Of a stretch of DNA of 64,000 nucleotides, positions 4,440-48,787 are shown one piece after another. The position numbers and the translations under genes were made by a program. A model generated the notes under the pieces. It worked only from the letters and a program-made list of their open reading frames with translations. It was not told the DNA's origin and made no database searches. Location of the stretch: positions 45,613-109,612 of IMG/VR virus record IMGVR_UViG_3300028805_001692, one strand, 5' to 3'. Origin of the DNA: a virus (lineage: Duplodnaviria; Heunggongvirae; Uroviricota; Caudoviricetes). Position 1 is the stretch's first letter. Every line of letters begins with the position of its first letter.

Positions 4440-4519
4440 AATTTTTTAATATTTTTAATCTAGATTATTATTATCAATTTTATTATAAATATATCATTAA
4501 CATTTTTTTAATAAAATTA

Positions 4520-4551
4520 TTTGTTATTATCATTTTTTTTATATATCTTTG
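4520..4551 (+). promoter_or_regulatory. Bacteroidota sigma-A type promoter (-33 TTTG 4520-4523, -7 TAtcTTTG 4544-4551)
   Basis: Consensus TTTG, 20-nt spacer, then TAnnTTTG. ATG at 4569. Confidence 0.6.
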
Positions 4552-4568
4552 CCAAAATTCGGTTAGAT

Positions 4569-4955
4569 ATGATAAAGGTTCTTATGTTAATGATTCTTGC
4601 ACATATAGTAGATGATTACTACTTGCAAGGTATTCTTGCTTCAATGAAGCAGAAGAAATGGTGGCTTGAGCAGAAAGGCTACAAGGACATGTATAAAAAT
4701 GACTATAAGATGGCTCTGTTAATGCACTCTATGTCATGGTCTATAGTTGTGTCCCTGCCTATAATGTTCTTCACTACAGCACCAGGAATATTTGTTTATA
4801 CGCTGTTTGTGTTAAATACCATAATGCATTACTATATAGATAATCTTAAAGCTAACGAGCTTGCAATAAACCTGGTTGAAGACCAATCAGTACATCTTAT
4901 TCAGATATTGTTAACATGGCTTTCAGTAACTATGGTGTCATCACCACTTATCTGA
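4569..4955 (+). CDS. small polytopic membrane protein
   Basis: The ORF track starts at 4521, but that reading runs through the promoter. The in-frame ATG at 4569 (MIKVLMLMILAHIV...) sits about 18 nt after the -7 box. About four hydrophobic segments. Confidence 0.4.
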   Translation: MIKVLMLMILAHIVDDYYLQGILASMKQKKWWLEQKGYKDMYKNDYKMALLMHSMSWSIVVSLPIMFFTTAPGIFVYTLFVLNTIMHYYIDNLKANELAINLVEDQSVHLIQILLTWLSVTMVSSPLI

Positions 4956-5312
4956 TTATCTCTTATTGCCAGTATCTGTCAATACCTTATCACTCTCCAA
5001 GAACACCTTCTTGAAGAACTCGTATAGCGAGCTTGTTGGGTGGTCTGCATACTTTTTCAGACCCTCAATAGCTGTCTCTCTAATCTTACCGATGATTGGC
5101 TCATGCTGGATAACCTCCTGTGCGTGCATTGCAATTTCTTCCTCTGAGTCACCTTGACCCATCATCATCTGAGGATTCTGCTGCATCATCATCTGAGGGT
5201 TTGGCTGTTCACCAGGTACTCCCTCTTCTCCATTGAATATATAGGCTTCTGAGAGCTGTGTCTTAAGTTGATTTAGCTCTTCTACCAAACTTTTAATATC
5301 CTTCTTTTCCAT
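4956..5312 (-). CDS. hypothetical protein (Q/M-rich)
   Basis: 118-aa ORF with repeated 'NPQMMMQQ' segments. Late-type A/T motif at 5328-5345 upstream. Confidence 0.4.
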   Translation of the reverse strand: MEKKDIKSLVEELNQLKTQLSEAYIFNGEEGVPGEQPNPQMMMQQNPQMMMGQGDSEEEIAMHAQEVIQHEPIIGKIRETAIEGLKKYADHPTSSLYEFFKKVFLESDKVLTDTGNKR

Positions 5313-8700: not shown

Positions 8701-9260
8701 CCATCACTGCTGATTGGAATATACGGTTTAATCTGAAGTGCATTCAAATTATACATTTTCTTTGAACAGTCGTTTGTAGCACCACTGCAAAGTGCTGGTT
8801 CACCAACATAGTAGGACAATGCGTCGTACTTAGATGGCTCACAGGTACATACTGTTGTATCACCTGTCTGGAATGGCTTGTAAGTACCACGTGAACGGAT
8901 AAGTGCCACAGCCTGTCCATTTGCAGTAACAAGCCAAGCAGGGCCTGCATTGTAACCGCTAAGACCAAGCACACGAACAACCTTAAGTTGCTCACTCTCA
9001 GTCAGATAAGACTTAGCAATGTAAGGCAACTCATATTTAGGATACTGGCTTCCCTTAAATTTCTCAGTACTTGTTCCACCAAACACCTCCTGGAACTCAC
9101 GCCAGTTAGCAATGTCCATTGGCTGGAAGGCTGGACCTTTCAAGGTCTCACCAACAACACCAAGTGTTGTGATACCAAGGCTGCGAACAGCATAAGTCAT
9201 GTCAATCTCCCTGGTATATATACCTGGTGAAACATGTATTCCTCTTGCATTATCTGCCAT
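5754..9260 (-). CDS. tail sheath protein (T4 gp18-like), 1168 aa
   Basis: N-terminus 'IHVSPGIYTREID...LGITTLGVVGETLKGPAFQP' parallels T4 gp18 'LLSPGIELKE...AALAGKFQWGPAFQ'. Large size implies extra insertion domains. Lies upstream of the tube gene. Confidence 0.8.
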   Translation of the reverse strand: MADNARGIHVSPGIYTREIDMTYAVRSLGITTLGVVGETLKGPAFQPMDIANWREFQEVFGGTSTEKFKGSQYPKYELPYIAKSYLTESEQLKVVRVLGLSGYNAGPAWLVTANGQAVALIRSRGTYKPFQTGDTTVCTCEPSKYDALSYYVGEPALCSGATNDCSKKMYNLNALQIKPYIPISSDGDECEGYEIDGVSGGSSFSVSQYNHGRFKLVGVYGKWCNTEVDTIINSKDFEKGYFEYPVSLNPYDKEYILNVLGTKPYDGDAWIYVESLYDVALTQGIANGNIVSIDSGETATSGMTITSNSGSTCGLKGYQVYYTADYCHHEPVSAIVSVPSNALRRRHVGQRFLADLDAQYDTAFTCVGFNYTTGQPLMVARCADITPGVNCRPSAVVFNSYASGLTPTNQPESLSGLTDEEKIALLSTPMQFEMKAGQIYTVKQYTTQDGKRHYYYAFYTGESVNAVINTYAKDEKLLDPTNMYGNLLNGGNKYMDAAYKFDKIGAKKEYATLVLNNADGLYYRMSNSVDISGNTNVAPVELDLNDYKSAYRYASTPWIVSNLKGDYEHVELNKLFRFHTITDGNNANYEVKVSIENIRPDEGVFDVIVRRIDDVDESIIPLERFGRCSMTPGDSNFIGFKIGTFDGLYESKSKYITVEVNDSTAARMSVPAGFIGYPIPKYDGMPVTGEAYSGVTFPTLMYNRYFNPDVKNRKQYFGLSSWIGVDIDNFTFKGNKAYIDDPRFLSHGFHLDSRIDATNGGIPASAITVDGEHGYEFDCVSTDSRTSILNGIPLIGTEEEMYGSIYEYVNLRKFTVYFYGAFDGWDDYRDQRTNTDEYKMSQYRGYVNQGSGEGYAFNRIQNPELLKLNQNGITSDWYAYLSGIRQFSNPEETDINVFATPGIDYVNQKLLVNEAIEMIEEERADSIYVITTPDKPAGTGDYVDEMYTPEEAVYNLEDSEIDSNYSCTYYPWVKYLDIENSQYIYLPPTKDAVRNFAQTDNTAWPWFAPAGVERGNVDCVRAHFITKLADEDVLYDGRINPIKTFAQDGPKIWGQKNLQINESQLNRIAVRRLLLRMRKLIAISCIGLIFEPNDPTTKQSFLSTVTPIMDSIRSNRGISDYRIEINDTIESRERRELPVKIYFKPYNALEYIVIDFILTPEGVSFDDI

Positions 9261-9300: not shown

Positions 9301-9314
9301 TATATAAATATTTA
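9301..9314 (-). promoter_or_regulatory. late-type A/T motif TATATAAATATTTA upstream of the sheath gene
   Basis: One member of a recurrent TATAAATATT-like motif found 15-50 nt upstream of minus-strand structural gene starts. Confidence 0.4.
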
Positions 9315-22573: not shown

Positions 22574-23995
22574 ATGTCTAAAAAAAATTATAAGTCTAAA
22601 AATTACTGGTTAATAAAAGAAAACGCCATTAATGAATCAAAAAAATATTCATCAAGAGCAGAGTTTTGTAAAGGTTCTTACGGAGCATATAAAAGGTCTC
22701 TTAAGAACGGTTGGCTAGATGAGATGACGTGGTTGACTAAAAAGAATGTATGTAAAGACCCAGTTGATACTGTATACAGATATTATTTTGAAAATGAGAA
22801 TGCTGTGTATGTTGGCAGAACAATATATCTAGAATTAAGAGACCATCAACATAGAACAAGAGAAAAAGATACTGTTTATAAATTTGCCAAAGAATTTAAT
22901 GCGGAAATTCCTAAAATCGAAGTATTGGAAGAAGGGCTGACTGTATTACAAGGTGCTGAAAGAGAAGATTATTGGGAGAAATATTATAGAAATAAAGGGT
23001 TTACTATAATAAACAAACAACCTTGCGGAAGTCTTGGCCATATGTGCAAGAAGTGGAGTAAAGAAAAATGCTTTGAAGAAGGTAAAAAATATAAAACAAG
23101 AAGCGAATTCCAAAAAAATGCACCGCAAGCATATCATTTATCGATTACAAACAACTGGATTGATAACATGACTTGGTTACCAAAAATACAAAATGTTCCA
23201 AATAAGTTTTGGAATGATAAAAATAACATAATTAATGAAGCAAAAAAATATAAAACTAGGGGTGAATTTAGAAATAAGTCTTGTGGGGCATATCGTGCTG
23301 CAATAAATCATGGCTACATAAATGAATTAACTTGGCTGAATAAAAAAAAGAATGTACCAAATGGCTATTGGCAAAAGAAAGAAAATGTTATAAACGAGGC
23401 AAAAAAATATAAAACTAGGGGTGAATTTCAAAAAAACAATGTGGGGGCATATGAATCAGCTAGAAAAAACAAATGGTTCGATGAAATGAACTGGTTCGAA
23501 AAACCAAAAGAAAGAAAACCAAAAGGTTATTGGAAAAACAAAGAAAATGTTATAAATGAATCAAAAAATTTCAAAACTAGAAGTGAATTTAAATTTTTAT
23601 CACAGAGAGCTTATGAGTCAGCTAGAAAAAACAAATGGCTCGATGAAATGATATGGCTAAATAATGATGATGGAAAACACCCAAAAGGATACTGGAAAAA
23701 TGAAAAAAACATTATGCACGAAGCAAAAAAATATTCTAATAAAGAAGAGTTCAAGGAAAAAAATTTAACAGCATTTCTAATGTCATATAGATACGGTTTA
23801 AATGAAAAAATGGACTGGATGGTTAAACAGAAGCAGCATAAGAAGGGATACTGGACTTACAACCACATAGAAGAGGAGGCACTGAAATATAATACAAAGA
23901 GTGAGTTCTTCAAGGGAAATCAGACAGCATACAGGGCTGCACTGAAGATGGGTATTATTGATGATTTCTTCGGACTTAATGACTATGTACAATAA
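22574..23995 (+). CDS. GIY-YIG-like homing endonuclease with eight ~48-aa tandem repeats
   Basis: 'VYRYYFENENAVYVGRTIYLELRDHQH' resembles I-TevI 'GIYQIKNTLNNKVYVGSAKDFEKRWKRH'. Repeats of 'EAKKYKTRGEFxKxxxGAYxAAxKNxWxDEMTWLxKK' are probably DNA-binding modules. Confidence 0.45.
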   Translation: MSKKNYKSKNYWLIKENAINESKKYSSRAEFCKGSYGAYKRSLKNGWLDEMTWLTKKNVCKDPVDTVYRYYFENENAVYVGRTIYLELRDHQHRTREKDTVYKFAKEFNAEIPKIEVLEEGLTVLQGAEREDYWEKYYRNKGFTIINKQPCGSLGHMCKKWSKEKCFEEGKKYKTRSEFQKNAPQAYHLSITNNWIDNMTWLPKIQNVPNKFWNDKNNIINEAKKYKTRGEFRNKSCGAYRAAINHGYINELTWLNKKKNVPNGYWQKKENVINEAKKYKTRGEFQKNNVGAYESARKNKWFDEMNWFEKPKERKPKGYWKNKENVINESKNFKTRSEFKFLSQRAYESARKNKWLDEMIWLNNDDGKHPKGYWKNEKNIMHEAKKYSNKEEFKEKNLTAFLMSYRYGLNEKMDWMVKQKQHKKGYWTYNHIEEEALKYNTKSEFFKGNQTAYRAALKMGIIDDFFGLNDYVQ

Positions 23996-24094
23996 AAAAT
24001 GAGCGAATCAGAGAGATTCGCCCATATGTTCGACAAGCCCATTGGACTTGTTTATAAATGGTCTGAAATTAGAATAGGTCTTGTGGCTGCTTAA

Positions 24095-24469
24095 TTAGAA
24101 TTTGCTAACACCTCTAAGATAATTATTTCTTACATTGGCTTGATAGTTTCCTATTGAACCGCCATTAGTCATCATATCTTGTGAGTGTTGTGGGTTTCTT
24201 TCATCATTATACCCAATTTGATTGGCAGTTTCTGCTGCATCATACGTTTGGAAATTTTGTGGTGTTCTATTACCTCTTGCTTTATACGCATAATCATCAG
24301 TGTTCATAGCAGCATCTCTATTTCCATTATTCATTTGTCTACCTTGAAGTCTTCCAAGCATATATTGACCTTTGGCGGTATCACCAATCTCATTTAGCAC
24401 TCTGTTTACAGATTCTTTCACAATCCTGTGAAGGTCACTCTCTGTAAGTCTTATAATCTTCTTAGTCAT
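24095..24469 (-). CDS. conserved-leader family protein (member 1)
   Basis: N-terminus 'MTKKIIRLTESDLHRIVKESVNRVLNE', shared with 32489-32878. Divergent N/Q-rich C-terminus. Confidence 0.5.
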   Translation of the reverse strand: MTKKIIRLTESDLHRIVKESVNRVLNEIGDTAKGQYMLGRLQGRQMNNGNRDAAMNTDDYAYKARGNRTPQNFQTYDAAETANQIGYNDERNPQHSQDMMTNGGSIGNYQANVRNNYLRGVSKF

Positions 24470-24553
24470 AATCTTCCTCGTTTTCTATATAAATATCTTT
24501 ATTTTCTCGTTTGTTTACTTCCTTGGCATATTAATTTATGTTATTGCCTTTAA

Positions 24554-25186
24554 TTATTTCAATTTAACTCTTGATAAAAAATCTTTTAAACAAGCATCCT
24601 CATCATAGTCTATGTCTCTAACTATTGAATATAAATCATCACAGTCCAAATTCTGTGTCTTCAAGAATTCAACATCTTCATTATCACCATTTCCAAATGC
24701 CCTCTTTAGTTTCCTATTAAATGCATTTCCATATGTGGGTATATATCCTCTGAAACGTTTTCCATCCCAATATATGAAAAACAATATAGGACACTCCCAA
24801 TCACCGCCAGCGTAGCATTTCAGATATGTTATACCTTTCCGTGTTTCAACTTTACCTATTGCGCCAAGATTTTCGCAATCATAGTCTATCTTAGATATAT
24901 CGTCCAGCAATATTGACAATTCTTTTGGTTTTTCCTTATTGTAATTATTACAAAACCTATACACAAAACTATCTAAAGAAAATTTTCTATCATCTTCTTT
25001 ATTTCTTTCATAAATCTCTTTAATTTTCTCCTCAAATTCTTTTGCCGAAATCTTTGCTGCCGTTCTACCGCCATTAGGAAGTTCAACATCTAGATTAACA
25101 ACATACCTTTTTCTGCCACCCTCTATAATTAATCTCAGTTGGGATTCATTTAACATTATTCTTTTCATACTTGTAATTATTCTCAA
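24554..25186 (-). CDS. conserved-leader family protein (member 2)
   Basis: N-terminus '...MKRIMLNESQLRLIIEGG'. Unrelated C-terminal domain. Confidence 0.45.
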   Translation of the reverse strand: MRIITSMKRIMLNESQLRLIIEGGRKRYVVNLDVELPNGGRTAAKISAKEFEEKIKEIYERNKEDDRKFSLDSFVYRFCNNYNKEKPKELSILLDDISKIDYDCENLGAIGKVETRKGITYLKCYAGGDWECPILFFIYWDGKRFRGYIPTYGNAFNRKLKRAFGNGDNEDVEFLKTQNLDCDDLYSIVRDIDYDEDACLKDFLSRVKLK

Positions 25187-27134
25187 TTATCAGTTGTTCC
25201 ATAAAACAGTTATATATCTTGAAAGACTTGAGATATCCTATAAAACTTCCAGCAAAGTTCTTCTCAATTGGATAAACCCTGGTAGGATTCAGCATATAGT
25301 TAGGTTGTATTGTTTCAGCAAGTCCCTGTGTTCCACCTCCAAGAGAAATATTGTATGGTATTCCCTCCTGTTTCTCATATAGCTCATGTAATGCCCTAAG
25401 CTCTATAGGTGGTAAATCCTGCGAAATATATACAAGTTTACCGTTTACGTAGAACATGAGCTTCATTTTACCCATAACAAACATCATCCTAACCATTACA
25501 GTAACCCATTCACAGTCTGGTATTACATTCTCGAATGAATATCCTTCTATAATCTTTGTCTTGTCACGCCCCTCTGCTTCGCAATCAACTGAAAGCATCC
25601 TGTATCCTATCTCACCATTATCAGTTATTCTAAATGCAAGTGCGTTATTATACAGGTCAGTGTATGGGTTGTAATAGTTAGCTGACTGGTCTCTAAGAGT
25701 ATCAATATCGCTCACCGTATATCCAGTCTTAGTTCTGTTCATGAGTATAAACAGATTGCCAGTAAACTGGCTTCTCCTTCCATAATACATAATTTGAGTA
25801 CCTTCTATCCAATCCTTAATAGTGTGACCATGCTTCGTGCGGTCAAAAATCATAAATTTATTATCAGTGTAGAAGTAGTACTGGTTAGCTTCAAACAAGG
25901 AGAAACCATTGTCTGTATAATAGATAAAATCTGTTATGTCAAGTTCTGGCTCAAGATATGCCTGGCATTCCTCAAGACTTCCAAGGTCTCCGAAATCACC
26001 TATGTATTCGTCTCCGAACTCAGTTCCCATCTTAAGTGGATTTGGGTCGAATGGGTCATCAGACTTCTTAGGTATCCTCTTATACGATATAGGGCATCCA
26101 CAGCCTCTGAAATACCTCTTGAGTATATATTCCTCACCAACCTCTCCGCAACACCATGTAAGTGTCTTATGAGGTTCGTCTTCATCAATTATTTTAGGTT
26201 GTTTTCCTGGACAATCACCACCACCAAGTACTTCCATTTCAAGGTAGTCTTCCATATCGTTCCAGTCACAGTAGTCATCTGCATACAACTCATCGTCGTA
26301 GTAGTTGTAATTGGTGTAGTCTCCAAGCTCGAATGGGTCATATCCGTCAAAATCTGGATTAGGGCTGTAGAAGTATCCTATTATGTAATCTTTCTTATCA
26401 ATTTCTCCACCTTCTACGAAATCTTCAACTCCAAGTTGGTAGCATTCTTCAAGACCGTCAACATCATCCTTATCATACTGATAAATCCATTTATTCTCAG
26501 ACCTTGTTCCAATGTAGAAAAATATACCCTTGTTCTCTGGGTATTTGTCATTAAGCGTTTTAGTTGACTCTGGCTCAAAATCACACTTCTTAAGCGTGAA
26601 CTCAAAATACATGTTATCACCACTCTTGAACGTAGATGGAAGTATCTTGTACTTATCACACTCGGTCTCAAAAAATCCCTGGAAGAAACCACCATTAAGC
26701 TTTGTCTGGCACTCTTCAATGGATAAAGGATACTCATACTGTAGCGTGTTTCCACTTACCGCATGAAGCTTAAGTCTTTTATCTTCTATTTCATACTTAT
26801 TTTCTTGAAATATTCTTATAAAATCCTTATTAGCAATCCTGTCTTTTCTGAATCTGAAGAGTCCATTGTCAACTCCAGTATATGTAATATTATATAAGGT
26901 GTATGGGTTGAATACAGCATCATCCCATGAATAACTATCTTTGCTATATAGCCACTCAGCACCATCGGTACATTCCTCATCACACAGGTCTATGTATGAG
27001 ATAAGACAGCCATCATATAAACCATCCGTCTTAAAAGAACCATATGAGTCCTTATTAACAAAGAAGTCCCAATATTCATCCTTGTTAATCCTAAGTCTGA
27101 GATTATGATAATTATTAACCTTTAAATTTGCCAT
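25146..27134 (-). CDS. hypothetical large protein (662 aa), acidic Y/D-rich
   Basis: Intact long ORF with a late-type motif upstream (27146-27173). No recognisable catalytic motifs. Confidence 0.45.
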   Translation of the reverse strand: MANLKVNNYHNLRLRINKDEYWDFFVNKDSYGSFKTDGLYDGCLISYIDLCDEECTDGAEWLYSKDSYSWDDAVFNPYTLYNITYTGVDNGLFRFRKDRIANKDFIRIFQENKYEIEDKRLKLHAVSGNTLQYEYPLSIEECQTKLNGGFFQGFFETECDKYKILPSTFKSGDNMYFEFTLKKCDFEPESTKTLNDKYPENKGIFFYIGTRSENKWIYQYDKDDVDGLEECYQLGVEDFVEGGEIDKKDYIIGYFYSPNPDFDGYDPFELGDYTNYNYYDDELYADDYCDWNDMEDYLEMEVLGGGDCPGKQPKIIDEDEPHKTLTWCCGEVGEEYILKRYFRGCGCPISYKRIPKKSDDPFDPNPLKMGTEFGDEYIGDFGDLGSLEECQAYLEPELDITDFIYYTDNGFSLFEANQYYFYTDNKFMIFDRTKHGHTIKDWIEGTQIMYYGRRSQFTGNLFILMNRTKTGYTVSDIDTLRDQSANYYNPYTDLYNNALAFRITDNGEIGYRMLSVDCEAEGRDKTKIIEGYSFENVIPDCEWVTVMVRMMFVMGKMKLMFYVNGKLVYISQDLPPIELRALHELYEKQEGIPYNISLGGGTQGLAETIQPNYMLNPTRVYPIEKNFAGSFIGYLKSFKIYNCFMEQLIIENNYKYEKNNVK

Positions 27135-27145
27135 ATTCAGTCATT

Positions 27146-27173
27146 AATATTTGTCATAAATAAATATTTATTT
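27146..27173. promoter_or_regulatory. palindromic late-type A/T motif in a divergent region (CATAAATAAATATTTATTTAATAATAAA)
   Basis: Self-complementary core TAAATATTTA. Lies between divergent genes 25146-27134 (-) and 27195 (+). Confidence 0.4.
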
Positions 27174-27194
27174 AATAATAAAACAGGAGTTATT

Positions 27195-27428
27195 ATGAAA
27201 ATAATTAATTTACATGAGTCCCAATACAATAGGCTCTTCGAGGACATAGAGAACTGGGGAAAGAGTCCTATAGCTGACTATCAGACACAGGATGAGGTCG
27301 TTACCACTTCGAAGATACATGATAAGGATGGTGATATAACAGACTCAGAACCTAAGGATACACAGGCTAAGCAAGACCAGATGTCAATGCAAGACTTTGG
27401 TGCAAGAACTAAAAATCGTAACTGGTAA
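27195..27428 (+). CDS. small protein with leader-family-like N-terminus
   Basis: 'MKIINLHESQYNRLFEDIEN' resembles the IIRLTES...(L/I)xE leader. The stop overlaps the next gene's start (TAATG). Confidence 0.4.
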   Translation: MKIINLHESQYNRLFEDIENWGKSPIADYQTQDEVVTTSKIHDKDGDITDSEPKDTQAKQDQMSMQDFGARTKNRNW

Positions 27429-27967
27429 TGGCATTATTTTTTGAAGACAGTGAGAAAGTAACCCAGAAGCAAATTCCAATACCTCAGAAATCCAAGGAGG
27501 TATTTAAAGCAATGGACATGCTTTATAAGCCTTATGAGGATAAGGCTGAGGGGGGTCATGTACTTAAGTCTCTAGCTAGCGACAAGCAATATAACAAAAA
27601 AGGTGAAAAAGCCGCAAAGAACGGTCAAACTGGCAACACCGATACCGTAAGTGTAGAGGATGCAAAGAAGAGACTTGAGAGAATGGATAAATTCGCACCT
27701 AATACGCCACAGTATCAAATGTACGGTGGTCAACTTGGTCATGACATCTACAAGAAGGGTATTGAGAAAGCTAGGAGAATCAATACTGTAAGTCCAGTTA
27801 AACCAGTGATGCCTACAGCACAGGGAGCGACAAAGCCTGCTGGAGTGGAAACAAAAGAAATATCAAAACCAAATGGTAAGATAACATACAATGTTACAGC
27901 TGAAAGCAAGAAAATATATGTGACAGAATCACAGGTTATGAAAATAAAAGAAAATCAAGATAAATAA
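27428..27967 (+). CDS. hypothetical K-rich protein
   Basis: 179-aa ORF, translationally coupled to its neighbours. Confidence 0.4.
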   Translation: MALFFEDSEKVTQKQIPIPQKSKEVFKAMDMLYKPYEDKAEGGHVLKSLASDKQYNKKGEKAAKNGQTGNTDTVSVEDAKKRLERMDKFAPNTPQYQMYGGQLGHDIYKKGIEKARRINTVSPVKPVMPTAQGATKPAGVETKEISKPNGKITYNVTAESKKIYVTESQVMKIKENQDK

Positions 27968-27969
27968 CT

Positions 27970-28452
27970 ATGGCAACAAGTCCAATTGAGAGAACTCTAA
28001 ATAAGATAGGAAATGTCGTACAGGATATTTTCACAGGACCTAGTGAACCGCCAGCAAAAGTTAGTAAATACCTAACTGGACAAACATGTCTTGAGAAGGT
28101 TGGAATGGAAGCAAGGAAAACTCACCTTCTGAGAAATGAGTGGAGAAAAGACCTTGAGTACTCAAAACCACTAGTACTTGCTGAATATCAGATACAAACA
28201 GAATTCAAGGTTTCAACATCTGATGATGATGTGGCAACGCAGATGCAGAATGCTGAAAAGAAACAACAAGAGAAAGATAGGAAGGCACGTGAAAAGGCTC
28301 AGAAGAAAGCTGATAAGAAAGCAAGGAAAGAAGAGAAAAAGTCTAATACAGTACAAGGCGTTGATGTACAACCAGGGGGTGACAATACAAAATCAAAACC
28401 TAACGAGCTTCTTAGTGGCATGATGACACAGCAGATGCTTGGTATTCATTAA
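27970..28452 (+). CDS. hypothetical protein carrying the 'GQTCLEKVGMEAR' motif
   Basis: Shares 'GQTCLEK(V/R)GME' with the next ORF. Lys-rich C-terminus. Confidence 0.4.
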   Translation: MATSPIERTLNKIGNVVQDIFTGPSEPPAKVSKYLTGQTCLEKVGMEARKTHLLRNEWRKDLEYSKPLVLAEYQIQTEFKVSTSDDDVATQMQNAEKKQQEKDRKAREKAQKKADKKARKEEKKSNTVQGVDVQPGGDNTKSKPNELLSGMMTQQMLGIH

Positions 28453-28510
28453 ATTAATAGAATAAAACTATTTATATTAAAAATAAAGTATTTAAAATTT
28501 ATAGAGAATT

Positions 28511-28939
28511 ATGGCAAATACAGTTCAAAACGGACAGACCTGTCTTGAGAAGAGAGGCATGGAAGAGAGACACCAGGAAATTACCCGTAGTGACTATAAC
28601 ATCGAAAACCAGTATGGTCCTACTCACAAGGATGCCATCAGTGACGGTGACGCACAGGGTAAGGGAACTGGACACGGTGGACACACACACTTCCTCCCAG
28701 ACTGCACAAAACCAACTACAATGATTAACTACAGTAACTTCGACACTGAAAACGGTGGAGGATGCTACGATATAAAGGGTAGAAATGGAATAAGTGGACG
28801 TGAGAGAGCTATGGCAATCTCAATCTATAACAAAGAGAACCCTTATGGAGCAAACTTGGTTGATACCAGTGCAAACGTTGCTGATGGTCAGTACTATGTA
28901 GGACAGCAGATTGGTAGTCCTAACTCAACTTGTGGATAA
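28511..28939 (+). CDS. hypothetical protein carrying the 'GQTCLEKRGMEER' motif
   Basis: Paralogous N-terminal motif. Gly/His-rich segment 'GKGTGHGGHTHF'. Confidence 0.4.
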   Translation: MANTVQNGQTCLEKRGMEERHQEITRSDYNIENQYGPTHKDAISDGDAQGKGTGHGGHTHFLPDCTKPTTMINYSNFDTENGGGCYDIKGRNGISGRERAMAISIYNKENPYGANLVDTSANVADGQYYVGQQIGSPNSTCG

Positions 28940-28960
28940 TAGATTTAAGTAATCTAGTAA

Positions 28961-29776
28961 ATGAATCACATTAACCTGTCTTTATCCCACATCCTAGAAT
29001 CAATACAACTAAACGAAGATTCTAACCTCGTTGATTTCAAGGATGCTAAGGATAAAATCAATTATGCCATCGACAATAGACTCATGATTTCTCTGTACTA
29101 TGACGATGGTAAAGGAAATGAAGGATATACACCAGCCTACGGAAACCCAAGAGGATTCCGTAGGATTGTTCCTTATTGCCTTGGAAGTAGGAATGGCAGG
29201 TTAGCACTAAGAGGCTTTCACGCATTCAAGAAGCACACGAAGAAAGGTCCGTTTAAGTGGAAGTTCTTCTACCTCGACAGAATGAAAAACGTAAGGGTTT
29301 ACCAAAACATGCATATAGATGAGATTCCAGCACTTGCGAATCCAAACGGAGACAAGCATATGGATAAAATTATCAACTACATAGGTATGAACAGATTCGT
29401 AAGCCCACTCGAAAGGGAAAGACGTAATACTAATGCAATTAAAAATTCAAAACCATCACAGACCAATAAAAAAGGTGCTGTAAAGACTGTAGGTAATGGT
29501 AATATAAACTCACTTCAAAACCTCAAACCTATACCTTCTAAGACCAAGAAATTACAATATAATTTCCAGAATACAAAGAAGAATATAGAAGACTTTGAGA
29601 AGCAGAATACACCTATGGTTAAACAGCAGAGATGGGCTGATTACGACAAGGCTGAAAGGGAAAGACAAGAACAGTTGAAACAAAGCCAAGCACCTAACCC
29701 TCCAACCAGTAATGCTGGACCTGTCAATAAAAATGATATGGAAGGTTACGAACAGAACATAAATAACAAGAAATAA
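28961..29776 (+). CDS. hypothetical protein
   Basis: 271-aa ORF. Confidence 0.4.
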   Translation: MNHINLSLSHILESIQLNEDSNLVDFKDAKDKINYAIDNRLMISLYYDDGKGNEGYTPAYGNPRGFRRIVPYCLGSRNGRLALRGFHAFKKHTKKGPFKWKFFYLDRMKNVRVYQNMHIDEIPALANPNGDKHMDKIINYIGMNRFVSPLERERRNTNAIKNSKPSQTNKKGAVKTVGNGNINSLQNLKPIPSKTKKLQYNFQNTKKNIEDFEKQNTPMVKQQRWADYDKAERERQEQLKQSQAPNPPTSNAGPVNKNDMEGYEQNINNKK

Positions 29777-29792
29777 TATATAATCATTTAAT

Positions 29793-30422
29793 ATGACAAG
29801 CCAGGAAGAAAGAGCAGCAAGAATTAAGGCTGCAAGAAGCAAATCTCTTAAACTTATGCAGATGGATGCAAACGGAACGTTAGATAAGATTGCAGAGGGT
29901 AAGAAGGATAGCATAAACAAATCATTCGATGATAATAATATAACTACAGATAGTCTACTATCATCATCAAAAGTTGATAGAACTAGTAGGATGTCTACAG
30001 GAAGGATGAGTGTAGCTGCTGGTAATGTTCCGTCAATAATTAGAGAATCATTCCAGTCACAGCCACCACTTGCGCAACAAGAGATGACAAGTTCAGTACT
30101 AGACGGTATGTTCGGTGATTTACTTACAGAACAAATTACACGCCCAGTCATGGAAGAGGATACACAACAGCCACAAGTACAGCAGGTTGTTCCTCAGTAT
30201 TCAGCACAAATTGATTATCCTATGATTAGAACTATTGTTGAGGAGATTGTAAGAAAATACACTACGTCACTAAGCAAGAAAATGGTGAATGAGAATAAAA
30301 GTAGTGAAGTAAATACAATAAGTCTTGGGAAAACATTTAAATTCCTTGCAAACAATGGTGACATTTATGAATGTACAATGAAAAAAGTTGGTAATATAAA
30401 TAAGAAGAGTGTTAACGGCTAA
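29793..30422 (+). CDS. hypothetical protein
   Basis: 209-aa ORF with a terminator hairpin overlapping its stop. Confidence 0.4.
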   Translation: MTSQEERAARIKAARSKSLKLMQMDANGTLDKIAEGKKDSINKSFDDNNITTDSLLSSSKVDRTSRMSTGRMSVAAGNVPSIIRESFQSQPPLAQQEMTSSVLDGMFGDLLTEQITRPVMEEDTQQPQVQQVVPQYSAQIDYPMIRTIVEEIVRKYTTSLSKKMVNENKSSEVNTISLGKTFKFLANNGDIYECTMKKVGNINKKSVNG

Positions 30423-30440
30423 CACTCTTTTTTTTTTATT
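30406..30440 (+). terminator. intrinsic terminator
   Basis: 9-bp stem agagtgtta / taacactct, loop acggc, followed by T10. Confidence 0.6.
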
Positions 30441-30489
30441 TTTATTATTTGATTATATGTTTTTTTAACTATTTTTTAAAGAAAAACAT

Positions 30490-31704
30490 ATGGATAAGAA
30501 AATCAAAATGTTAGTAATCCCTTCTGACAGAACTGGTGTTGGTAAGTTCCGTTCAGTTGACCCTCATGTTTATATTGCAGAGCACTATGGGGACGAGTTC
30601 GACGTAGATGTTGTATATAGTATGCCTAACGGAGACCTGGAGTCGTTCTTAAGGCAATATGATTTGGTACACATCCATAAACAACTTGATAAACAATGTA
30701 AAATTATTGATATGCTGAAGTTCCTTGGTATACCAGTAATTATTGACATTGATGACCATTATAAATTAGGTAATGACCACCCTATGTCCATCACAGCAAA
30801 CAAGGAAAAGTGGCATGAACCTATCATAGAACACTTGAAAAGAGCAGACTATGTTACTACAACAACTCCTATCTTCGCAGAAGTTATAAAGAAGCATAAC
30901 AAGAATGTGAAGGTTTTCCCTAATGCAATTAATCCAGAAGAGCCTCAGTATAAAATACCTAAGACGCAAGGCGATGGAAGACTTAGAGTGGGTATTATAT
31001 GTGGTTCTTCACATTTGAAGGATTTAGAGTTACTTAATGGCATTGCAGTACAAGTAAACAAGAATAAGGTTCAGTTTGTACTGTGTGGATTTGATACAAG
31101 AGGAAATAGAACAATCTATAACCAGCAAACTGGAGAAAAAACAACAAGACCTATTCTTCCAGAGGAAAGTGTGTGGTGTGACTATGAGAAGATATTCACT
31201 GATAACTATAAGACAGTATCTCCAGCACACCTTGAGTTTCTTAAAAAGTATATGGCAAACGTAGATGACCCGTTCACAAATGAACCATATAGGAGAATGT
31301 GGACTAGGGACATCAATAATTATGCTTCACACTATGCAAATGTTGATGTGCTTATTGCACCACTTAAGGAGAATGAGTTTAACAAGGTTAAGTCAGAACT
31401 TAAAGAAATAGAGTGTGGTTTTACACATACAGCATTCATTGCACAGAATTTCGGTGCTTATACCATAAACTTAATTCCAATGATTGAGAAGGGTGGAAAG
31501 ATTAACGAAGAAGGAACTGCACTTCTAGTTGATTCATCCAAGAATCACAAACAGTGGGCAAAGTATATTAACAAGCTTGCTGATGATAGGGATATGCTTA
31601 AGAAACTACAGGATAACCTTTATAATTTTGTAAAGGATAGATATTCTCTAGAAGAAGTATGTAGACAAAGAGTAGAATTCTATAAGAGTATAGTAAATAA
31701 ATAA
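30490..31704 (+). CDS. GT-B fold glycosyltransferase (GT1/GT4-like)
   Basis: Two Rossmann-like halves: N-terminal 'KMLVIPSDRTGVGKF'; C-terminal half starting 'GRLRVGIICGSS' with an E-rich 'EIECGFTH...LVDSS' region typical of the GT4 donor-binding domain. Confidence 0.45.
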   Translation: MDKKIKMLVIPSDRTGVGKFRSVDPHVYIAEHYGDEFDVDVVYSMPNGDLESFLRQYDLVHIHKQLDKQCKIIDMLKFLGIPVIIDIDDHYKLGNDHPMSITANKEKWHEPIIEHLKRADYVTTTTPIFAEVIKKHNKNVKVFPNAINPEEPQYKIPKTQGDGRLRVGIICGSSHLKDLELLNGIAVQVNKNKVQFVLCGFDTRGNRTIYNQQTGEKTTRPILPEESVWCDYEKIFTDNYKTVSPAHLEFLKKYMANVDDPFTNEPYRRMWTRDINNYASHYANVDVLIAPLKENEFNKVKSELKEIECGFTHTAFIAQNFGAYTINLIPMIEKGGKINEEGTALLVDSSKNHKQWAKYINKLADDRDMLKKLQDNLYNFVKDRYSLEEVCRQRVEFYKSIVNK

Positions 31705-31749
31705 AAAAAAAAATAAATGGAGATAGACTCGGTTCTATCTCCATTTTTA
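31703..31749. terminator. bidirectional intrinsic terminator
   Basis: 9-bp stem ggagataga / tctatctcc, loop ctcggt. A-run before and T-run after, between convergent genes. Confidence 0.6.
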
Positions 31750-32496
31750 TTATATTCTACCAGTATTGTATGATATATTGCTATGTTTACTTCCATGTTC
31801 AAGATTATCCCCAAACTTATTACGTATGAACTCGGCACATTTCATAAGTTTACTGGTGACTTCACTTACACCCTTAGGGCTTCCAGCTATAACAAGATTA
31901 GATAAGCCATTTGAGGTATTATAACCATCTATAATATTACCTCTTTTATTATCATTAGGTTTTAAAACAGGGTGGAACTGTCTCATTTTTTTCAATTCCT
32001 TGAACTTGTTAAACATGTTGTTAACAATTGTTGCCAGTTCCTCAAGAGGCTTTGGTAAGTCACACAGTCTATAGTTAACACCACTCTCATCACCTTCCTT
32101 AGCCCAAGTCTCTATATCCCTGGTAAGCTTAACAATGTTGTTATACTTAGTCTGGAACTGTACAAACATGTTACCGTTAGCATCATTAAAGAAATTATAG
32201 ACAGCATCAGCATTAGCAACACCAAATATACCAGCACTATTCCTATTGAATCCAGCAATTGCCCTAAGCTTAGGGCAATCCCATGTCTTTCTAAGAGTAG
32301 CACCGACATCTCTAACAGTCCTTGAATCATAAAGGCTGGTAGCTGCTGGTCTCTTCTGTCTCTTCACAGGTTCTCCACTAGCGGTTCTTCTCCTGTGATA
32401 AGGTCTTTTATAGCCCTCTATACTAGCCCAATCCTCAAATGATTCTGATATGAGTCTGTTAATTTCCTCTGTTATTATTTTATCAATCCTATTCAT
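31750..32496 (-). CDS. conserved-leader family protein (member 3)
   Basis: N-terminus 'MNRIDKIITEEINRLISES'. 248-aa divergent body. Confidence 0.45.
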   Translation of the reverse strand: MNRIDKIITEEINRLISESFEDWASIEGYKRPYHRRRTASGEPVKRQKRPAATSLYDSRTVRDVGATLRKTWDCPKLRAIAGFNRNSAGIFGVANADAVYNFFNDANGNMFVQFQTKYNNIVKLTRDIETWAKEGDESGVNYRLCDLPKPLEELATIVNNMFNKFKELKKMRQFHPVLKPNDNKRGNIIDGYNTSNGLSNLVIAGSPKGVSEVTSKLMKCAEFIRNKFGDNLEHGSKHSNISYNTGRI

Positions 32497-32878
32497 TTAG
32501 TCCCTCATTCATTAAGTTATTGATTGATTCAGTAACGGCACGTGCAATCTTACCCTCGTAGTAACCATTAGCTTCTTTCCAGCCAATAGTATCTGCTGGT
32601 AACTTTCCCTGTGGAGAACCAAATTCGTCTCTGACAGCCTGGTTAATCTCCTGTTGTTCTGGATTAACCTCTGGTTCGTCATCATTAAGGTATGTGTTTC
32701 CAGCAACTGTAGCAAGTCCAGCTGCTCCAAGTCCACCTGCCATAAGTGCATCGTTTCTAAAATCTTTCCATCCGTATTCGTTTACAGCACCCTCTGTTAT
32801 GGCACGTCTAACGGACTGTTCTACAATATTCTTAAGTTCTGATTCTGTAAGTCTTACAATCTTTTTCATAATGTACAT
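32489..32878 (-). CDS. conserved-leader family protein (member 4)
   Basis: N-terminus 'MKKIVRLTESELKNIVEQSVRRAITE', near-identical in pattern to member 1. Confidence 0.5.
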   Translation of the reverse strand: MYIMKKIVRLTESELKNIVEQSVRRAITEGAVNEYGWKDFRNDALMAGGLGAAGLATVAGNTYLNDDEPEVNPEQQEINQAVRDEFGSPQGKLPADTIGWKEANGYYEGKIARAVTESINNLMNEGLNE

Positions 32879-33084
32879 ATTTTCTTTATAAATATCTCTT
32901 TATTCCAGTTTTTAATGTTTTTTAACCTTGGTAATAGCATATATTACCATATTTTTGGATATAATATAAGTGAATGGGAACTGCAATATAATATTATAAT
33001 AGATATTACTATAAGATATTAATATATTATATAATATTATTAAATTATATTAAATATCATTCTATTAAAAAATATTAATAAATC

Positions 33085-33116
33085 CTTGTTTTTTTAATAA
33101 ATTTTATATATCTTTG
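33085..33116 (+). promoter_or_regulatory. Bacteroidota sigma-A type promoter (-7 TAtcTTTG 33109-33116)
   Basis: -33-like CTTG at 33085-33088, 20-nt spacer, -7 TAnnTTTG. ATG at 33144. Confidence 0.5.
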
Positions 33117-33143
33117 CATTGTGAAACTTAAATTTTAACAAAA

Positions 33144-41654: not shown

Positions 41655-42659
41655 ATGTTAAGAAGAATTACTAATAATGAGTTTATTAAAAGGGCTAAAG
41701 AAGCTCACGGAAATACTTATGACTACTCGAAAGTAGAATATACTAAAATGCACGAAAAGGTGTGTATTATATGCCCAGAGCACGGTGAATTTTGGCAAAC
41801 ACCACATAACCACCTTAAAGGGCAAAAATGCCCAAAATGTGCTAATGCTATGAGAGGTGATACGTTTAGAGATAGCCAAGATGAATTTGTAAGAAGGGCA
41901 AGAGAAGTTCACGGAGATAAATATGATTACTCCAAAGTTGAATACATAAACAACAGAACAAAAGTTTGTATAATATGCCCAGAACACGGTGAATTTTGGC
42001 AAAGACCATACTCTCATCTACAAGGATTTGGTTGTAAAAAATGTAACAATTTTGTTTATGATACAAGGTCATTCATAGCAAAGGCAAAAGAATTGTATGG
42101 TGAAAAATATGATTATTCTAGTGTGATATATAGACATAGTAAGGAAAAGGTGTGTATCATATGCCCAGAACACGGTGAATTTTTTATAACACCTAATAGT
42201 TTTTTGAGAGGCCATTCTTGTCCAATTTGCAAACAAAGTATGCTGGAAAATGAGATAGAGGAAATACTAATTGAAAATGAAATAAACTTTGTTAGACAGC
42301 AAATGTTTAATTGGTTAGGCTCTAAAAGAATTGATTTTTATTTACCAGAATATAAAACTGGTATAGAATGCCAAGGTGGGCAACACTTTAGAAATGTAGA
42401 ATGGTTTGGTGGAACTGACGGATTTACATATCGTAAGAAATGCGATAAAGAAAAGAAACTACTCTGTGAGGAACATAGTATTAAAGTGCTGTATTTCACA
42501 CACGAGAATTATGACTATTTTTTAGGTGAGAAAACAATCAAAACCGCCATTGAACTTTTAGAACGTATAAAGGAAGATAGAAAGAAGGAATATAACCCAG
42601 AAATACCAGGAAGCGACGAAGAGTATGCCCCTAACTCAGAAATAGGAGTTAAAGAGTAA
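41655..42659 (+). CDS. homing-endonuclease-like protein: triple zinc-ribbon repeats plus DUF559/Vsr-like nuclease domain
   Basis: Three repeats of 'YDYSKVEY...KVCIICPEHGEFWQxPxxHLxGxGCPKC'. C-terminal 'IDFYLPEYKTGIECQGGQHF' is the PD-(D/E)XK DUF559 core. Confidence 0.55.
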   Translation: MLRRITNNEFIKRAKEAHGNTYDYSKVEYTKMHEKVCIICPEHGEFWQTPHNHLKGQKCPKCANAMRGDTFRDSQDEFVRRAREVHGDKYDYSKVEYINNRTKVCIICPEHGEFWQRPYSHLQGFGCKKCNNFVYDTRSFIAKAKELYGEKYDYSSVIYRHSKEKVCIICPEHGEFFITPNSFLRGHSCPICKQSMLENEIEEILIENEINFVRQQMFNWLGSKRIDFYLPEYKTGIECQGGQHFRNVEWFGGTDGFTYRKKCDKEKKLLCEEHSIKVLYFTHENYDYFLGEKTIKTAIELLERIKEDRKKEYNPEIPGSDEEYAPNSEIGVKE

Positions 42660-48591: not shown

Positions 48592-48738
48592 AAAAAAATT
48601 AGTTAAGAAAAAAGCGCAGTATCCTATCAGAAGGTACTGCGCTCTTTATTATGTATATATGTAATGTATTTCAATTCCATATTAGTTCCACGATTTATCT
48701 ATAAATATCTTAAAAAGCGTTAAAATAGTGCCAAAAAT

Positions 48739-48769
48739 TTTGGTATATTAGATTTTTTCTGTATCTTTG
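48739..48769 (+). promoter_or_regulatory. Bacteroidota sigma-A type promoter
   Basis: -33 TTTG at 48739-48742, 19-nt spacer, -7 TAtcTTTG at 48762-48769. ATG at 48788. Confidence 0.55.
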
Positions 48770-48787
48770 CCGAGAATTTAAAAACAA

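Follow-up and report, generated by a model that had tools for sequence, protein, structure and literature searches.

A probable capsid address tag on many unrelated small proteins of giant Prevotella phages

Several small proteins of a giant (~400-kb) gut/rumen phage of the T4 superfamily, a phage of Prevotella or other Prevotellaceae, carry a portable leader peptide that probably sends them into the capsid. The DNA analysed here (the window) is a stretch of 64,000 nucleotides from this phage. A capsid address tag like that of the T4 internal proteins is the best explanation of the leader, and we hold it with somewhat more belief than doubt, because of the sharp boundary at the leader's end, selection on the peptide itself, T4-type head genes in related phages, a shared late promoter and the folded, unrelated bodies to which the leader is attached. 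The canonical leader has 27 residues, MxKKLIRLTESDLHRIVKESVNR[IV][LI]xE, and short forms have 15-18. The leader genes and leader-like segments of the window are as follows:

24095-24469, minus strand: canonical leader gene, 124 aa; leader residues 1-27 at 24389-24469, MTKKIIRLTESDLHRIVKESVNRVLNE
24554-25168, minus strand: short-leader gene, 204 aa; leader at 25121-25168, MKRIMLNESQLRLIIE
27195-27428, plus strand: short-leader gene, 77 aa; leader at 27195-27242, MKIINLHESQYNRLFE
27908-27952, plus strand: C-terminal leader-like segment of gene 27428-27967, KKIYVTESQVMKIKE
31750-32496, minus strand: degenerate-leader gene, in an operon behind the 32489 gene; leader at 32443-32496, MNRIDKIITEEINRLISE
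32489-32869, minus strand: canonical leader gene; leader at 32792-32869, MKKIVRLTESELKNIVEQSVRRAITE; profile E 4e-12, two domains
32504-32551, minus strand: second leader-like copy at the C-terminus of the 32489 gene, KIARAVTESINNLMNE

The original prediction, made from the letters alone, named five open reading frames with related N-termini. All five exist with the N-termini quoted, and the pattern extends far beyond the window. Four were correctly placed on the minus strand, and 27195-27428 lies on the plus strand; the likely starts of two genes are at 25168 (MKRIML...) and 32869 (MKKIVRL...), not at 25186 and 32878. Two N-termini (24095 and 32489) are canonical, and those of the 24554, 27195 and 31750 genes are short or degenerate forms. 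With a leader profile built from metagenomic homologues, only 24095-24469 (E 1e-20) and 32489-32878 (E 4e-12) are significant among the window genes; the remaining three do not rise above noise, and their relatedness rests on homologues. A loose motif drawn from the five N-termini occurs four times in six frames against 0.06 expected, each time within 3 residues of a start Met, in a test that is post hoc, the motif having been derived from the same five sequences.

The homologues are informative for each gene. Among relatives of the 24554 gene the leader reads MKRIILTESQLKLITE; in some it is a 25-residue form with RLNE or IINE at its end, and others lack it altogether. In their alignment the leader is present or absent exactly up to the boundary of the body. 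Homologues of the 27195 gene were found at related loci L025 (MKVIKLTESQFRRLLE), L035 and L071, the last with two copies within one ORF, and the KKIYVTESQVMKIKE segment is conserved at the C-terminus of the L035 and L071 orthologues. The 31750 body has a relative at L081 (E 2e-11) that bears a canonical leader, MKNVIRLTESDLHRIIKESVGRVLNE, and both leader copies of the 32489 gene are kept in its L071 and L008 orthologues. The 24095-24469 gene has 756 homologues, none with a Pfam domain.

BLAST and predicted fold agree that the bodies are mutually unrelated, as had been claimed, and AlphaFold predicts folded bodies with higher confidence than leaders. For 24095-24469, pLDDT is ~70 in the leader and ~93 in the body, a predicted helical bundle; for 24554-25168 it is 47-58 in the leader and ~93 in the body, a predicted globular alpha/beta domain. 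The original prediction had also considered that the segment might be a helix of one homologous fold; it is instead portable, lies outside the predicted body folds and is missing from some homologues.

The proposed search with a profile of the leader found thousands more members: 7,145 clusters match in a public library of 50%-identity representatives, and none is annotated. In the window and 84 related loci there are 179 matches, 166 of which start 2-3 residues after the Met, and the 145 distinct leader proteins fall into 81 unrelated body clusters. No body of any leader protein matched a known anti-defence, effector or other domain, and no cultured relative was found among GenBank phages.

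Across the 81 unrelated bodies, information content is 2-4.3 bits per position through the terminal Glu and drops directly after it, from ~3.8 to <0.8 bits. All five leaders end in (L/I)-x-E, as originally stated; by body cluster, P3 is L, I or V in 78/81 and P1 is E in 75/81, and an internal L-T-E near the leader start is invariant in 80-81/81. Against the address-tag reading, hydrophobic-x-Glu is not rare at helix ends. The leader DNA comprises 128 distinct coding versions with high synonymous divergence, and leader Ser is encoded by both TCN and AGY codons. Codons differ in 48% of same-residue pairs, which shows that selection acts on the peptide.

Related ~400-kb phage contigs encode Peptidase_S77 (E 2e-25), Gp23 (3e-73) and Portal_T4 (6e-88), and the S77 (gp21) prohead protease of these relatives conserves GELNHP and GVSSRG, the His and Ser motifs. 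The window contains no head module, so the protease is known from the related contigs only. At the related loci, leader genes cluster between the portal and protease genes, a clustering that is biased because each locus has a leader gene at its centre and several loci nearly duplicate others. A putative late promoter motif, ATATTTAT, is common to leader, head, sheath and tube genes. In the window, with 20 matches against 4.5 expected, it stands 19-53 nt before the sheath, tube, fibre-like and other leader genes, and in relatives it precedes portal (14/15), protease (11/12) and major capsid protein (5/8) genes; it also precedes ~71/131 leader genes. Examples in the window are:

24485-24497, minus strand: putative late promoter GATATTTATATAG, 16 nt upstream of the start codon at 24469
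32884-32896: promoter motif of the 32489 gene
27164-27173: promoter motif of the 27195 gene
9302-9311, minus strand: promoter-like motif upstream of the tail sheath gene (5754-9260)
4483-4492, minus strand: promoter-like motif upstream of the tail tube gene (3951-4439)

This context also suits a different role, which we consider unlikely, in which the leader targets the prohead and the proteins it tags serve chiefly as filler of core or scaffold, like T4 gp67, gp68 and the acidic internal peptides, helping to build or fill a very large head rather than being ejected as effectors or anti-defence factors. The portal-to-protease interval is where T4 has genes 67 and 68; the bodies have a median length of only 98 aa and a very hydrophilic composition (GRAVY -1.09), about half of them being acidic; and an acidic, scaffold-like neighbour protein contains 11 (L/I)-x-E sites, about double the 5.4 expected, together with an IVKES-like N-terminus. 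However, extreme body diversity, presence or absence between close relatives and carriage by transposons would not be expected of essential structural parts, and two or more of the window bodies are domains with a confident fold, conserved even among distant giant phages; that of 24554-25168 is common to Lak megaphages (tblastn) and Bacillus phage G gp354 (BFVD, E 4e-10).

Less probable again, the leader could be a docking or oligomerisation helix that stays uncleaved and takes its proteins somewhere outside the capsid, for example to a conserved hub protein of phage or host, or to a compartment of replication or assembly. It forms an amphipathic helix, tolerated at N-terminal, internal and C-terminal positions, and its conservation far exceeds that of known capsid-targeting sequences. 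Such a role leaves unexplained why L-T-E is invariant, why the T4-protease consensus is the exact point where conservation ends, and why the genes cluster near head genes and share the late promoter of virion genes. Some proteins have two to four leaders, which, like the C-terminal copies, agrees with protease processing and with the way T4 Alt is processed at both ends.

Absent from the original prediction is the carriage of leader genes by IS1595-family transposons, which adds a selfish-element dimension. This family of insertion sequences is defined in ISfinder, and members with passenger genes are known. About one quarter of canonical leader genes lie inside IS1595-family transposons or adjoin their relics, and such elements also occur in cultured Prevotella/Segatella chromosomes without phage context. 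Intact elements have terminal inverted repeats of 23-28 nt enclosing one or two passenger ORFs and a DDE_Tnp_IS1595 transposase with an N-terminal zinc ribbon, and the element at L114 has an 8-bp target duplication; in transposase, repeats, duplication and passenger number these resemble known IS1595 elements. They differ in that the passenger is a leader-tagged, hypervariable ORF with a promoter of the phage structural type, and in that copies are common to ~400-kb phage genomes and their hosts, for which no published report was found. Long-form elements have the leader inside an ORF, between a conserved N-terminal domain of ~200 residues and a variable C-terminus, and they lack the late promoter. 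Traces of an element adjoin the first leader gene of the window:

23996-24088, plus strand: IS1595-family transposase relic, last 31 residues (tblastn E 3e-5, 52% identity, residues 298-328), convergent with the 24095-24469 gene and abutting its stop codon
24525-24548, minus strand: sequence like a left terminal inverted repeat, GGCAATAACATAAATTAATATGCC, resembling the GGCAATAACAT... consensus of intact elements of L046, L125, L117 and L098

With about a quarter of the genes as passengers and copies on bacterial chromosomes, transposition, more than any advantage to the phage, could explain the abundance of the leader, and arguments from gene position are weakened. That the leader ORF serves the transposon, as regulator, accessory factor or addiction or cargo gene, and spreads selfishly with no relation to capsids, is nevertheless improbable. 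It would account for intact elements that hold leader ORF and transposase together in phages and bacteria alike, and for a convergent arrangement, that of the window relic too, constant in 56/58 transposase-associated cases. On the other hand, 169/227 leader genes have no trace of a transposase and many others stand intact beside a decayed relic; conserved phage genes in synteny, such as 32489, 31750 and 24554, bear the leader; the cargo promoter is of the phage structural type; and transposases 97% identical in amino acids adjoin unrelated bodies, which suits a dedicated accessory factor poorly.

Polymorphic toxins and RiPP or bacteriocin precursors likewise join a conserved leader or junction to a hypervariable part, with a sharp drop at a cleavage motif. 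Least probable of all is that the leader is a junction for swapping C-terminal modules by recombination, or an export leader of this kind, with no capsid role: the abrupt boundary, the architecture of long-form passengers and unrelated bodies between near-identical flanks would suit it, but leader nucleotide identity averages only 67.5%, a poor substrate for homologous exchange, the bodies are hydrophilic, ~100 residues long and depleted in Cys, there is no Gly-Gly site, hydrophobic signal or recognisable toxin, immunity, transport, export or modification gene, and the context is phage structural genes.

The address-tag reading draws on T4, whose internal proteins are a diverse set with only a capsid-targeting sequence in common (PMC3012670). 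T4 Alt, with propeptides at both ends, is cleaved at ITE-6 and LTE-619, and gp23 has a 65-residue propeptide (PMC5694885), cut after L-T-E65 as read from its sequence. IPII and IPIII have an identical start, MKTYQEFIAE, and then diverge. As in IPI, IPII, IPIII and Alt, a short N-terminal segment ending in (L/I)-x-E precedes otherwise unrelated small proteins; related contigs encode a portal, an S77 protease and a major capsid protein of T4 type; the promoter is of late type; and, like Alt, these proteins could have a propeptide at each end. In sequence the leader does not resemble the T4 capsid-targeting sequence; it has two to three times the length (27 residues against 10) and is far more conserved. 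T4 has a handful of internal proteins, whereas the leader family has thousands of clusters, with in-frame multi-leader arrays, IS1595 carriage and host-chromosome copies. The T4 analogy of the original prediction is therefore supported in part, by portability, boundary, S77 protease and promoter; its suggestion of anti-defence proteins found no match.

Among other giant phages, SPN3US gp53 and gp54 have identical N-termini on diverged paralogues (PMC5694885). The inner-body and ejection proteins of phiKZ-like phages and SPN3US offer a parallel to the leader proteins as proposed here: they are many paralogous head-internal proteins whose propeptides are removed by a prohead protease cutting after Glu in a short motif. 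Their protease is of the S80 family and recognises (S/A/G)-x-E, in contrast to S77 and (L/I)-x-E here, their propeptides mostly exceed 100 residues, and the present phages are of another lineage, with T4-type sheath, tube, portal and major capsid protein. A further parallel is given by the cargo-loading peptides of encapsulins and the encapsulation peptides of microcompartments, short helices that can be moved between proteins and that, from either terminus, guide varied cargo into a protein shell. The analogy is functional only: those tags are not known to be phage-encoded or removed by a maturation protease, and their sequences are unrelated.

As a capsid address tag, the leader would work as follows. 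Tagged proteins would be made late, from the promoter type of head and tail genes, and the leader would dock them on the assembling prohead core, so that they are enclosed in the capsid. The S77 (gp21-type) protease would then cut after the internal L-T-E and after the terminal (L/I)-x-E, freeing the variable body inside the head, and tandem in-frame leader-body arrays would likewise be cut into separate units. The freed body, possibly an effector, may be delivered to the next host with the DNA or may remain as a core or internal peptide. IS1595 transposons, with a host-type promoter on the transposase and a phage-late promoter on the cargo, would spread and reshuffle canonical leader cassettes. 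These phages would thus have one conserved tag, with a T4-type protease cut site, on many unrelated small proteins.

The five open reading frames in which a related N-terminus had first been seen are all present in the window, with the N-termini as quoted. One of them, 27195-27428, had been grouped with minus-strand genes and lies on the plus strand; for two others, the probable starts are at 25168 (MKRIML...) and 32869 (MKKIVRL...), replacing those of the original prediction. The genes are listed below, where the leader is the conserved N-terminal tag ending in (L/I)-x-E (27 residues in the canonical form, 15-18 in short forms) and the body is the remainder of the protein.

24095-24469, minus strand: gene with a canonical leader
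24554-25168, minus strand: gene with a short or degenerate leader
27195-27428, plus strand: gene with a short or degenerate leader
31750-32496, minus strand: gene with a short or degenerate leader
32489-32869, minus strand: gene with a canonical leader

The leader belongs to a large family. The 124-residue protein encoded at 24095-24469 has 756 database relatives, none of them named and none with a Pfam domain, and in most the similarity is limited to the first 30-60 residues. A scan of IMG/VR gave 238 confirmed loci. Of 179 profile hits in 84 loci and the window, 166 start 2-3 residues past an in-frame Met, and the others are internal or C-terminal. Grouping the 145 distinct leader proteins by body gives 81 clusters, between which no similarity can be detected, in agreement with the earlier claim that the C-terminal bodies are unrelated. 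An alignment of one representative per cluster (n = 81), with the RLTE Arg as anchor, gives M-N-K-K-L-I-R-L-T-E-S-D-L-H-R-I-V-K-E-S-V-N-R-[IV]-[LI]-x-E as consensus. Between the Met and the final Glu, positions have an information content of 2-4.3 bits, which falls below 0.8 bits at the next residue (P1'). The (L/I)-x-E ending is borne out at family scale: P3 is L, I or V in 78/81 sequences, P2 can be any residue and P1 is E in 75/81, and in the 24554 family every short leader has this ending. The internal L-T-E is invariant in 80-81 of the 81. Searched against 50%-identity representatives, a 30-position leader profile finds 7,145 proteins at E <=0.001 and 895 at E <=1e-10, and the best matches contain two to four leaders per polypeptide.

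A leader HMM built from metagenomic homologues gives significant matches to 24095-24469 (E 1e-20) and to 32489-32878 (E 4e-12), and also places an additional leader-like copy at the extreme C-terminus of the latter. The proposed relationship is thus direct for two of the five genes, while the leaders of 31750, 27195 and 24554 score at noise level. Iterating the profile on 1.4 Mb of related sequence still gives no significant match to these three, so their membership rests on comparisons of homologues, which support it indirectly. The 31750 body has a homologue in a related locus (L081) that bears a canonical leader, and homologues of 27195 grade continuously into the canonical form, e.g. MKVIKLTESQFRRLLE. 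Homologues of 24554 exist in three states: with MKRIILTESQLKLITE, with a 25-residue form ending RLNE or IINE, and with the leader absent. The product of 27428-27967 has a leader-like C-terminus, KKIYVTESQVMKIKE, that is kept in its orthologues. A loose motif occurs four times in the six-frame translation of the window against 0.06 expected, each time at a start codon, in a test that is post hoc because the motif was devised with the sequences already seen. Two other genes, 28961-29776 (plus strand) and 4956-5312 (minus strand), may have additional degenerate leaders: their N-termini, MNHINLSLSHILESIQLNE and MEKKDIKSLVEELNQLKTQLSE, bear a faint likeness to the leader and finish with L-x-E.

Conservation of the leader acts on the peptide. 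There are 128 distinct coding versions, different codons are used in 48% of same-residue codon pairs, and Ser is encoded by both TCN and AGY codons. Since synonymous variation is this extensive, a DNA-level repeat, promoter or recombination site is rejected as the main cause, although in transposon copies the promoter and 5' UTR are nonetheless conserved as DNA. An ordinary helix of one homologous fold is likewise rejected, given 81 unrelated bodies, a leader pLDDT below that of the body and the existence of leaderless homologues. A ribbon-helix-helix or other DNA-binding N-terminal domain finds no Pfam or PDB sequence match; a conserved second helix is absent in most members, and AlphaFold predicts a single helix.

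Structure prediction of the bodies, which had been suggested, gave different folds for two window proteins. AlphaFold models the 24554 protein as an alpha/beta body (pLDDT ~93) with a leader at 47-58, and the 24095 protein as a helical bundle (pLDDT ~93) preceded by a leader helix at ~70; a Foldseek search of the PDB returned no match for either model. The 24554 body matches gp354 of Bacillus phage G (E 4e-10), with relatives also in Lak megaphages. Its domain (GGDWE...FFIYWDG..FRGYIPTYGNAFN) is common to Prevotella Lak megaphages, an uncultured 595-kb phage and phage G gp354, and represents a fold without annotation that is conserved in phages of very large size. The bodies of the family, with a median of 98 residues, are strongly hydrophilic and contain little I, L, V or C; roughly half of them are acidic and one third basic. 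No convincing Pfam domain was found in 128 representative leader proteins, and sequence searches of Pfam, PHROG and PDB matched no leader protein to a known family. A polymorphic toxin or bacteriocin/RiPP leader system was also considered and is not supported: no toxin, immunity, export or modification domain is found in the 128 representatives or in the window genes, with neighbouring genes covered in part; Cys is depleted, and no Gly-Gly site occurs in the leader.

The window encodes a T4-like sheath and tube and a family B DNA polymerase, with no head module within its 64 kb. It has no nucleotide match among GenBank phages, where the canonical leader protein also lacks a nucleotide or protein match. 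An uncultured 484-kb phage and T4-like phages have sheaths about 30% identical to that of the window. Contigs of 409-422 kb carry homologues of window genes, with identities of 50-97%, and it is only through such shared homologues that the window is linked to genomes bearing a head module. In the related loci, searches with T4 proteins found the portal, prohead protease and major capsid protein, and Pfam gave Portal_T4 (6e-88), Peptidase_S77 (2e-25) and Gp23 (3e-73). The S77 protease, of the gp21 type and encoded for example at 13635-14336 in L007, retains the His and Ser motifs GELNHP and GVSSRG. Near it is an acidic scaffold-like protein in which (L/I)-x-E sites are about twice as numerous as expected. 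In the major capsid protein of the relatives, the T4 cleavage site falls in an alignment gap, and a conserved HLIYE/ATA close by is only suggestive. Two further observations concern the 422-kb relative (L001): the protein at 2000-2842 has an ART-PolyVal domain, which is typical of injected polyvalent proteins, and the polymerase at 1-1882 has a weak intein match and is ~350 residues longer than that of the window.

The architecture of the leader proteins is that of T4 IPII and IPIII, which have MKTYQEFIAE in common and then diverge. The T4 internal proteins are a diverse set with only the targeting sequence in common (PMC3012670). T4 gp23 is cleaved after L-T-E65, and Alt at ITE-6 and LTE-619 (PMC5694885); Alt is thus a precedent for C-terminal propeptides, comparable with the C-terminal leader copies here. 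By inspection, the leader and the T4 capsid-targeting sequence (CTS, MKTYQEFIAE) have in common only the MK start and the hydrophobic-x-E end, and there is no Pfam or PHROG match of leader proteins to T4 internal proteins. Because the leader sequence is unrelated to that of T4, the system looks analogous by mechanism rather than a member of the T4 family by descent. The scaffold-like protein whose gene lies between those for protease and major capsid protein (14510-16021 in L007 and 11460-12929 in L045, two related loci) has an N-terminus resembling the leader core, with segments DIVKESL and KSAVKSLLSE, a likeness that is not statistically significant; in T4, the CTS (EFIAE) resembles the gp22 N-terminus (QLIAE) in a parallel way.

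Leader genes and structural genes have a promoter-like motif in common. Within the window, the octamer ATATTTAT precedes by 19-53 nt the sheath, tube and fibre-like genes, and likewise leader genes or the operons that include them; the version extended by two flanking positions has 20 matches against 4.5 expected. In related loci it is found upstream of the portal (14/15), protease (11/12), major capsid protein (5/8) and about 71/131 leader genes. A second promoter-like motif, TTTTATATATCTTTGC, is upstream of the DNA polymerase gene and three other non-structural genes at these window positions:

4500-4568
12020-12100
33080-33143
48730-48787

From sequence, we infer that ATATTTAT is a phage late promoter and TTTTATATATCTTTGC a host-type early promoter. 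The latter includes TAnnTTTG, the Bacteroidota -7 box, and points to a Bacteroidota host and an early/late promoter split. A late-type promoter also precedes 41655-42659 (plus strand). Its 334-residue product contains a treble-clef zinc finger (DUF4379), and more than 25 of the related loci encode homologues 34-63% identical to it; the gene resembles a mobile one present in multiple copies, possibly of the homing-endonuclease type. The slot between a conserved 118-residue gene and the tube gene holds a leader gene in the 422-kb relative (L001 10001-10351) and, in the window, an opposite-strand membrane-like gene with a host-type promoter (4569-4955, plus strand). This slot looks like a hot spot for cassette replacement.

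The best-supported mechanism, moderately probable on our analysis and the one first proposed, is that the leader targets proteins to the capsid (prohead core) as a propeptide, which a T4-type protease then removes. The leader would dock tagged proteins onto the prohead core and then be cleaved off; the proteins would be packaged and later ejected, and may act as effectors. In loci with both genes, the portal-to-protease interval holds 36/38 leader genes, a count raised by the choice of loci, which had leader genes at their centre and include several near-duplicates; in T4, genes 67 and 68 occupy the same interval. That the tagged proteins are core filler instead of effectors is improbable, and somewhat more so is an uncleaved docking helix serving another destination.

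A further alternative, that the leader's function serves a transposon, arises from the genomic setting of many leader genes. A scan with one genome per species found 41 leader loci, mostly in rumen Prevotellaceae bins. Three cultured strains are included (Segatella bryantii DSM 11371, Prevotella sp. MA2016 and Prevotella sp. tf2-5), where the neighbours are ordinary bacterial genes such as GH2, GH43, cyclophilin, subtilase and sulfatase. In these strains, the leader ORF is followed by a convergent 328-residue IS1595-family transposase, of which only a relic is left in S. bryantii. The transposase of one locus (L097) matches PF12762 (DDE_Tnp_IS1595, E 9e-43) and PF12760 (N-terminal zinc ribbon, E 6e-9). 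Among 227 leader genes in phage and bacterial loci, 28 are directly followed by a full transposase, 30 by a C-terminal relic of one and 169 by neither; in 56/58 associated cases the transposase is convergent with the leader gene. Transposases 97% identical in amino acid sequence adjoin unrelated bodies. Terminal inverted repeats (rough consensus AGGCAAyAAyATmGmAGTTGrCmC) flank the leader ORF and transposase together, and are 23-28 nt long with 89-100% identity in L046, L044, L121, L125 and L114. A target duplication is clear in L114 and unclear in the other elements.

Elements carrying a leader ORF and an IS1595-family transposase
L046: 1,519 bp, 28-nt repeats
L125: 1,641 bp
L121, L044 and L111: about 2.5-2.7 kb
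L114: 2,456 bp, perfect 24-nt repeats and perfect 8-bp target duplication TTAACAAG

Compact elements have the order left repeat, hairpin, ATATTTAT promoter, leader ORF, transposase, right repeat. The hairpin, AAATGCAGTCAGAAATGGCTGCATTT, is conserved directly inside the left repeat in L019, L034, L046 and L092, and could be a cargo-shielding terminator or a transposase-binding feature. In long elements, the leader is internal to an ORF with an unannotated N-terminal domain of ~200 residues (92 homologues, none annotated). TAnnTTTG is upstream of the transposase gene in 23/28 cases. The S. bryantii copy retains the phage-type promoter and 5' UTR; divergent from its leader gene is a 124-residue ORF (L101 4320-4694, minus strand) with a leader-like C-terminus, KINTIIKETIEQYLKRNL, which may be a second relic cassette within the same 1.2-kb islet.

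Judged by resemblance and a relic match, the window keeps one apparent decayed IS1595-type element:

24525-24548: sequence resembling the left repeat
24485-24497: putative promoter
24095-24469, minus strand: leader gene
23996-24088: 31-residue transposase relic (E 3e-5)

The expected place of the decayed transposase body, directly upstream of the relic, is occupied by 22574-23995 (plus strand), which encodes 473 residues with about eight repeats (KYKTRGEFxKxNxGAYxxARKNKWxDEMxW) and has no Pfam match. The other leader genes of the window have no transposon trace and keep their synteny in related phages. That the leader serves the transposon is unlikely, a reading weakened by leader genes that stay intact after the transposase decays, by conserved syntenic leader genes free of any trace, and by a cargo promoter of the phage structural type. 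Least probable is a recombination junction or export leader; a secretion signal or membrane anchor is rejected, with a hydrophobic stretch in 0/134 bodies.

A broader and distinctly tentative proposal is a mobile address-label system, in which IS1595 transposons shuttle a late promoter, a capsid-targeting leader and an exchangeable body between Prevotella and ~400-kb phages. Such cassettes would continually load new proteins into the phage head. Host-resident cargo, next to a transposase with a host-type promoter, would be silent until phage late transcription, and the host genome could then contribute proteins, helpful or harmful, to progeny capsids.

What appears to be new is that the leader is so long and so extremely conserved, that its unannotated clusters number in the thousands, that multi-leader arrays occur in frame and that IS1595 carriage is shared by giant phages and their Prevotella hosts. 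A literature search found no paper with the motif strings or such elements, and a review of jumbo-phage comparative genomics, read in part, does not mention the leader. If the leader is a capsid address, a simple sequence rule would list the packaged, and probably injected, proteins of uncultured giant Prevotella phages, which are widespread in the rumen and gut. The repertoire would comprise thousands of unannotated proteins, among which new factors for anti-defence or host takeover could be sought. Foreign proteins have already been loaded into capsids by means of the T4 capsid-targeting sequence, and the leader would be a ready tag for doing the same with the capsids of these phages. We know of no description for T4 of transposon-borne diversification or exchange of such a repertoire; the transposon link here suggests a route by which it is diversified and exchanged between phage and host.
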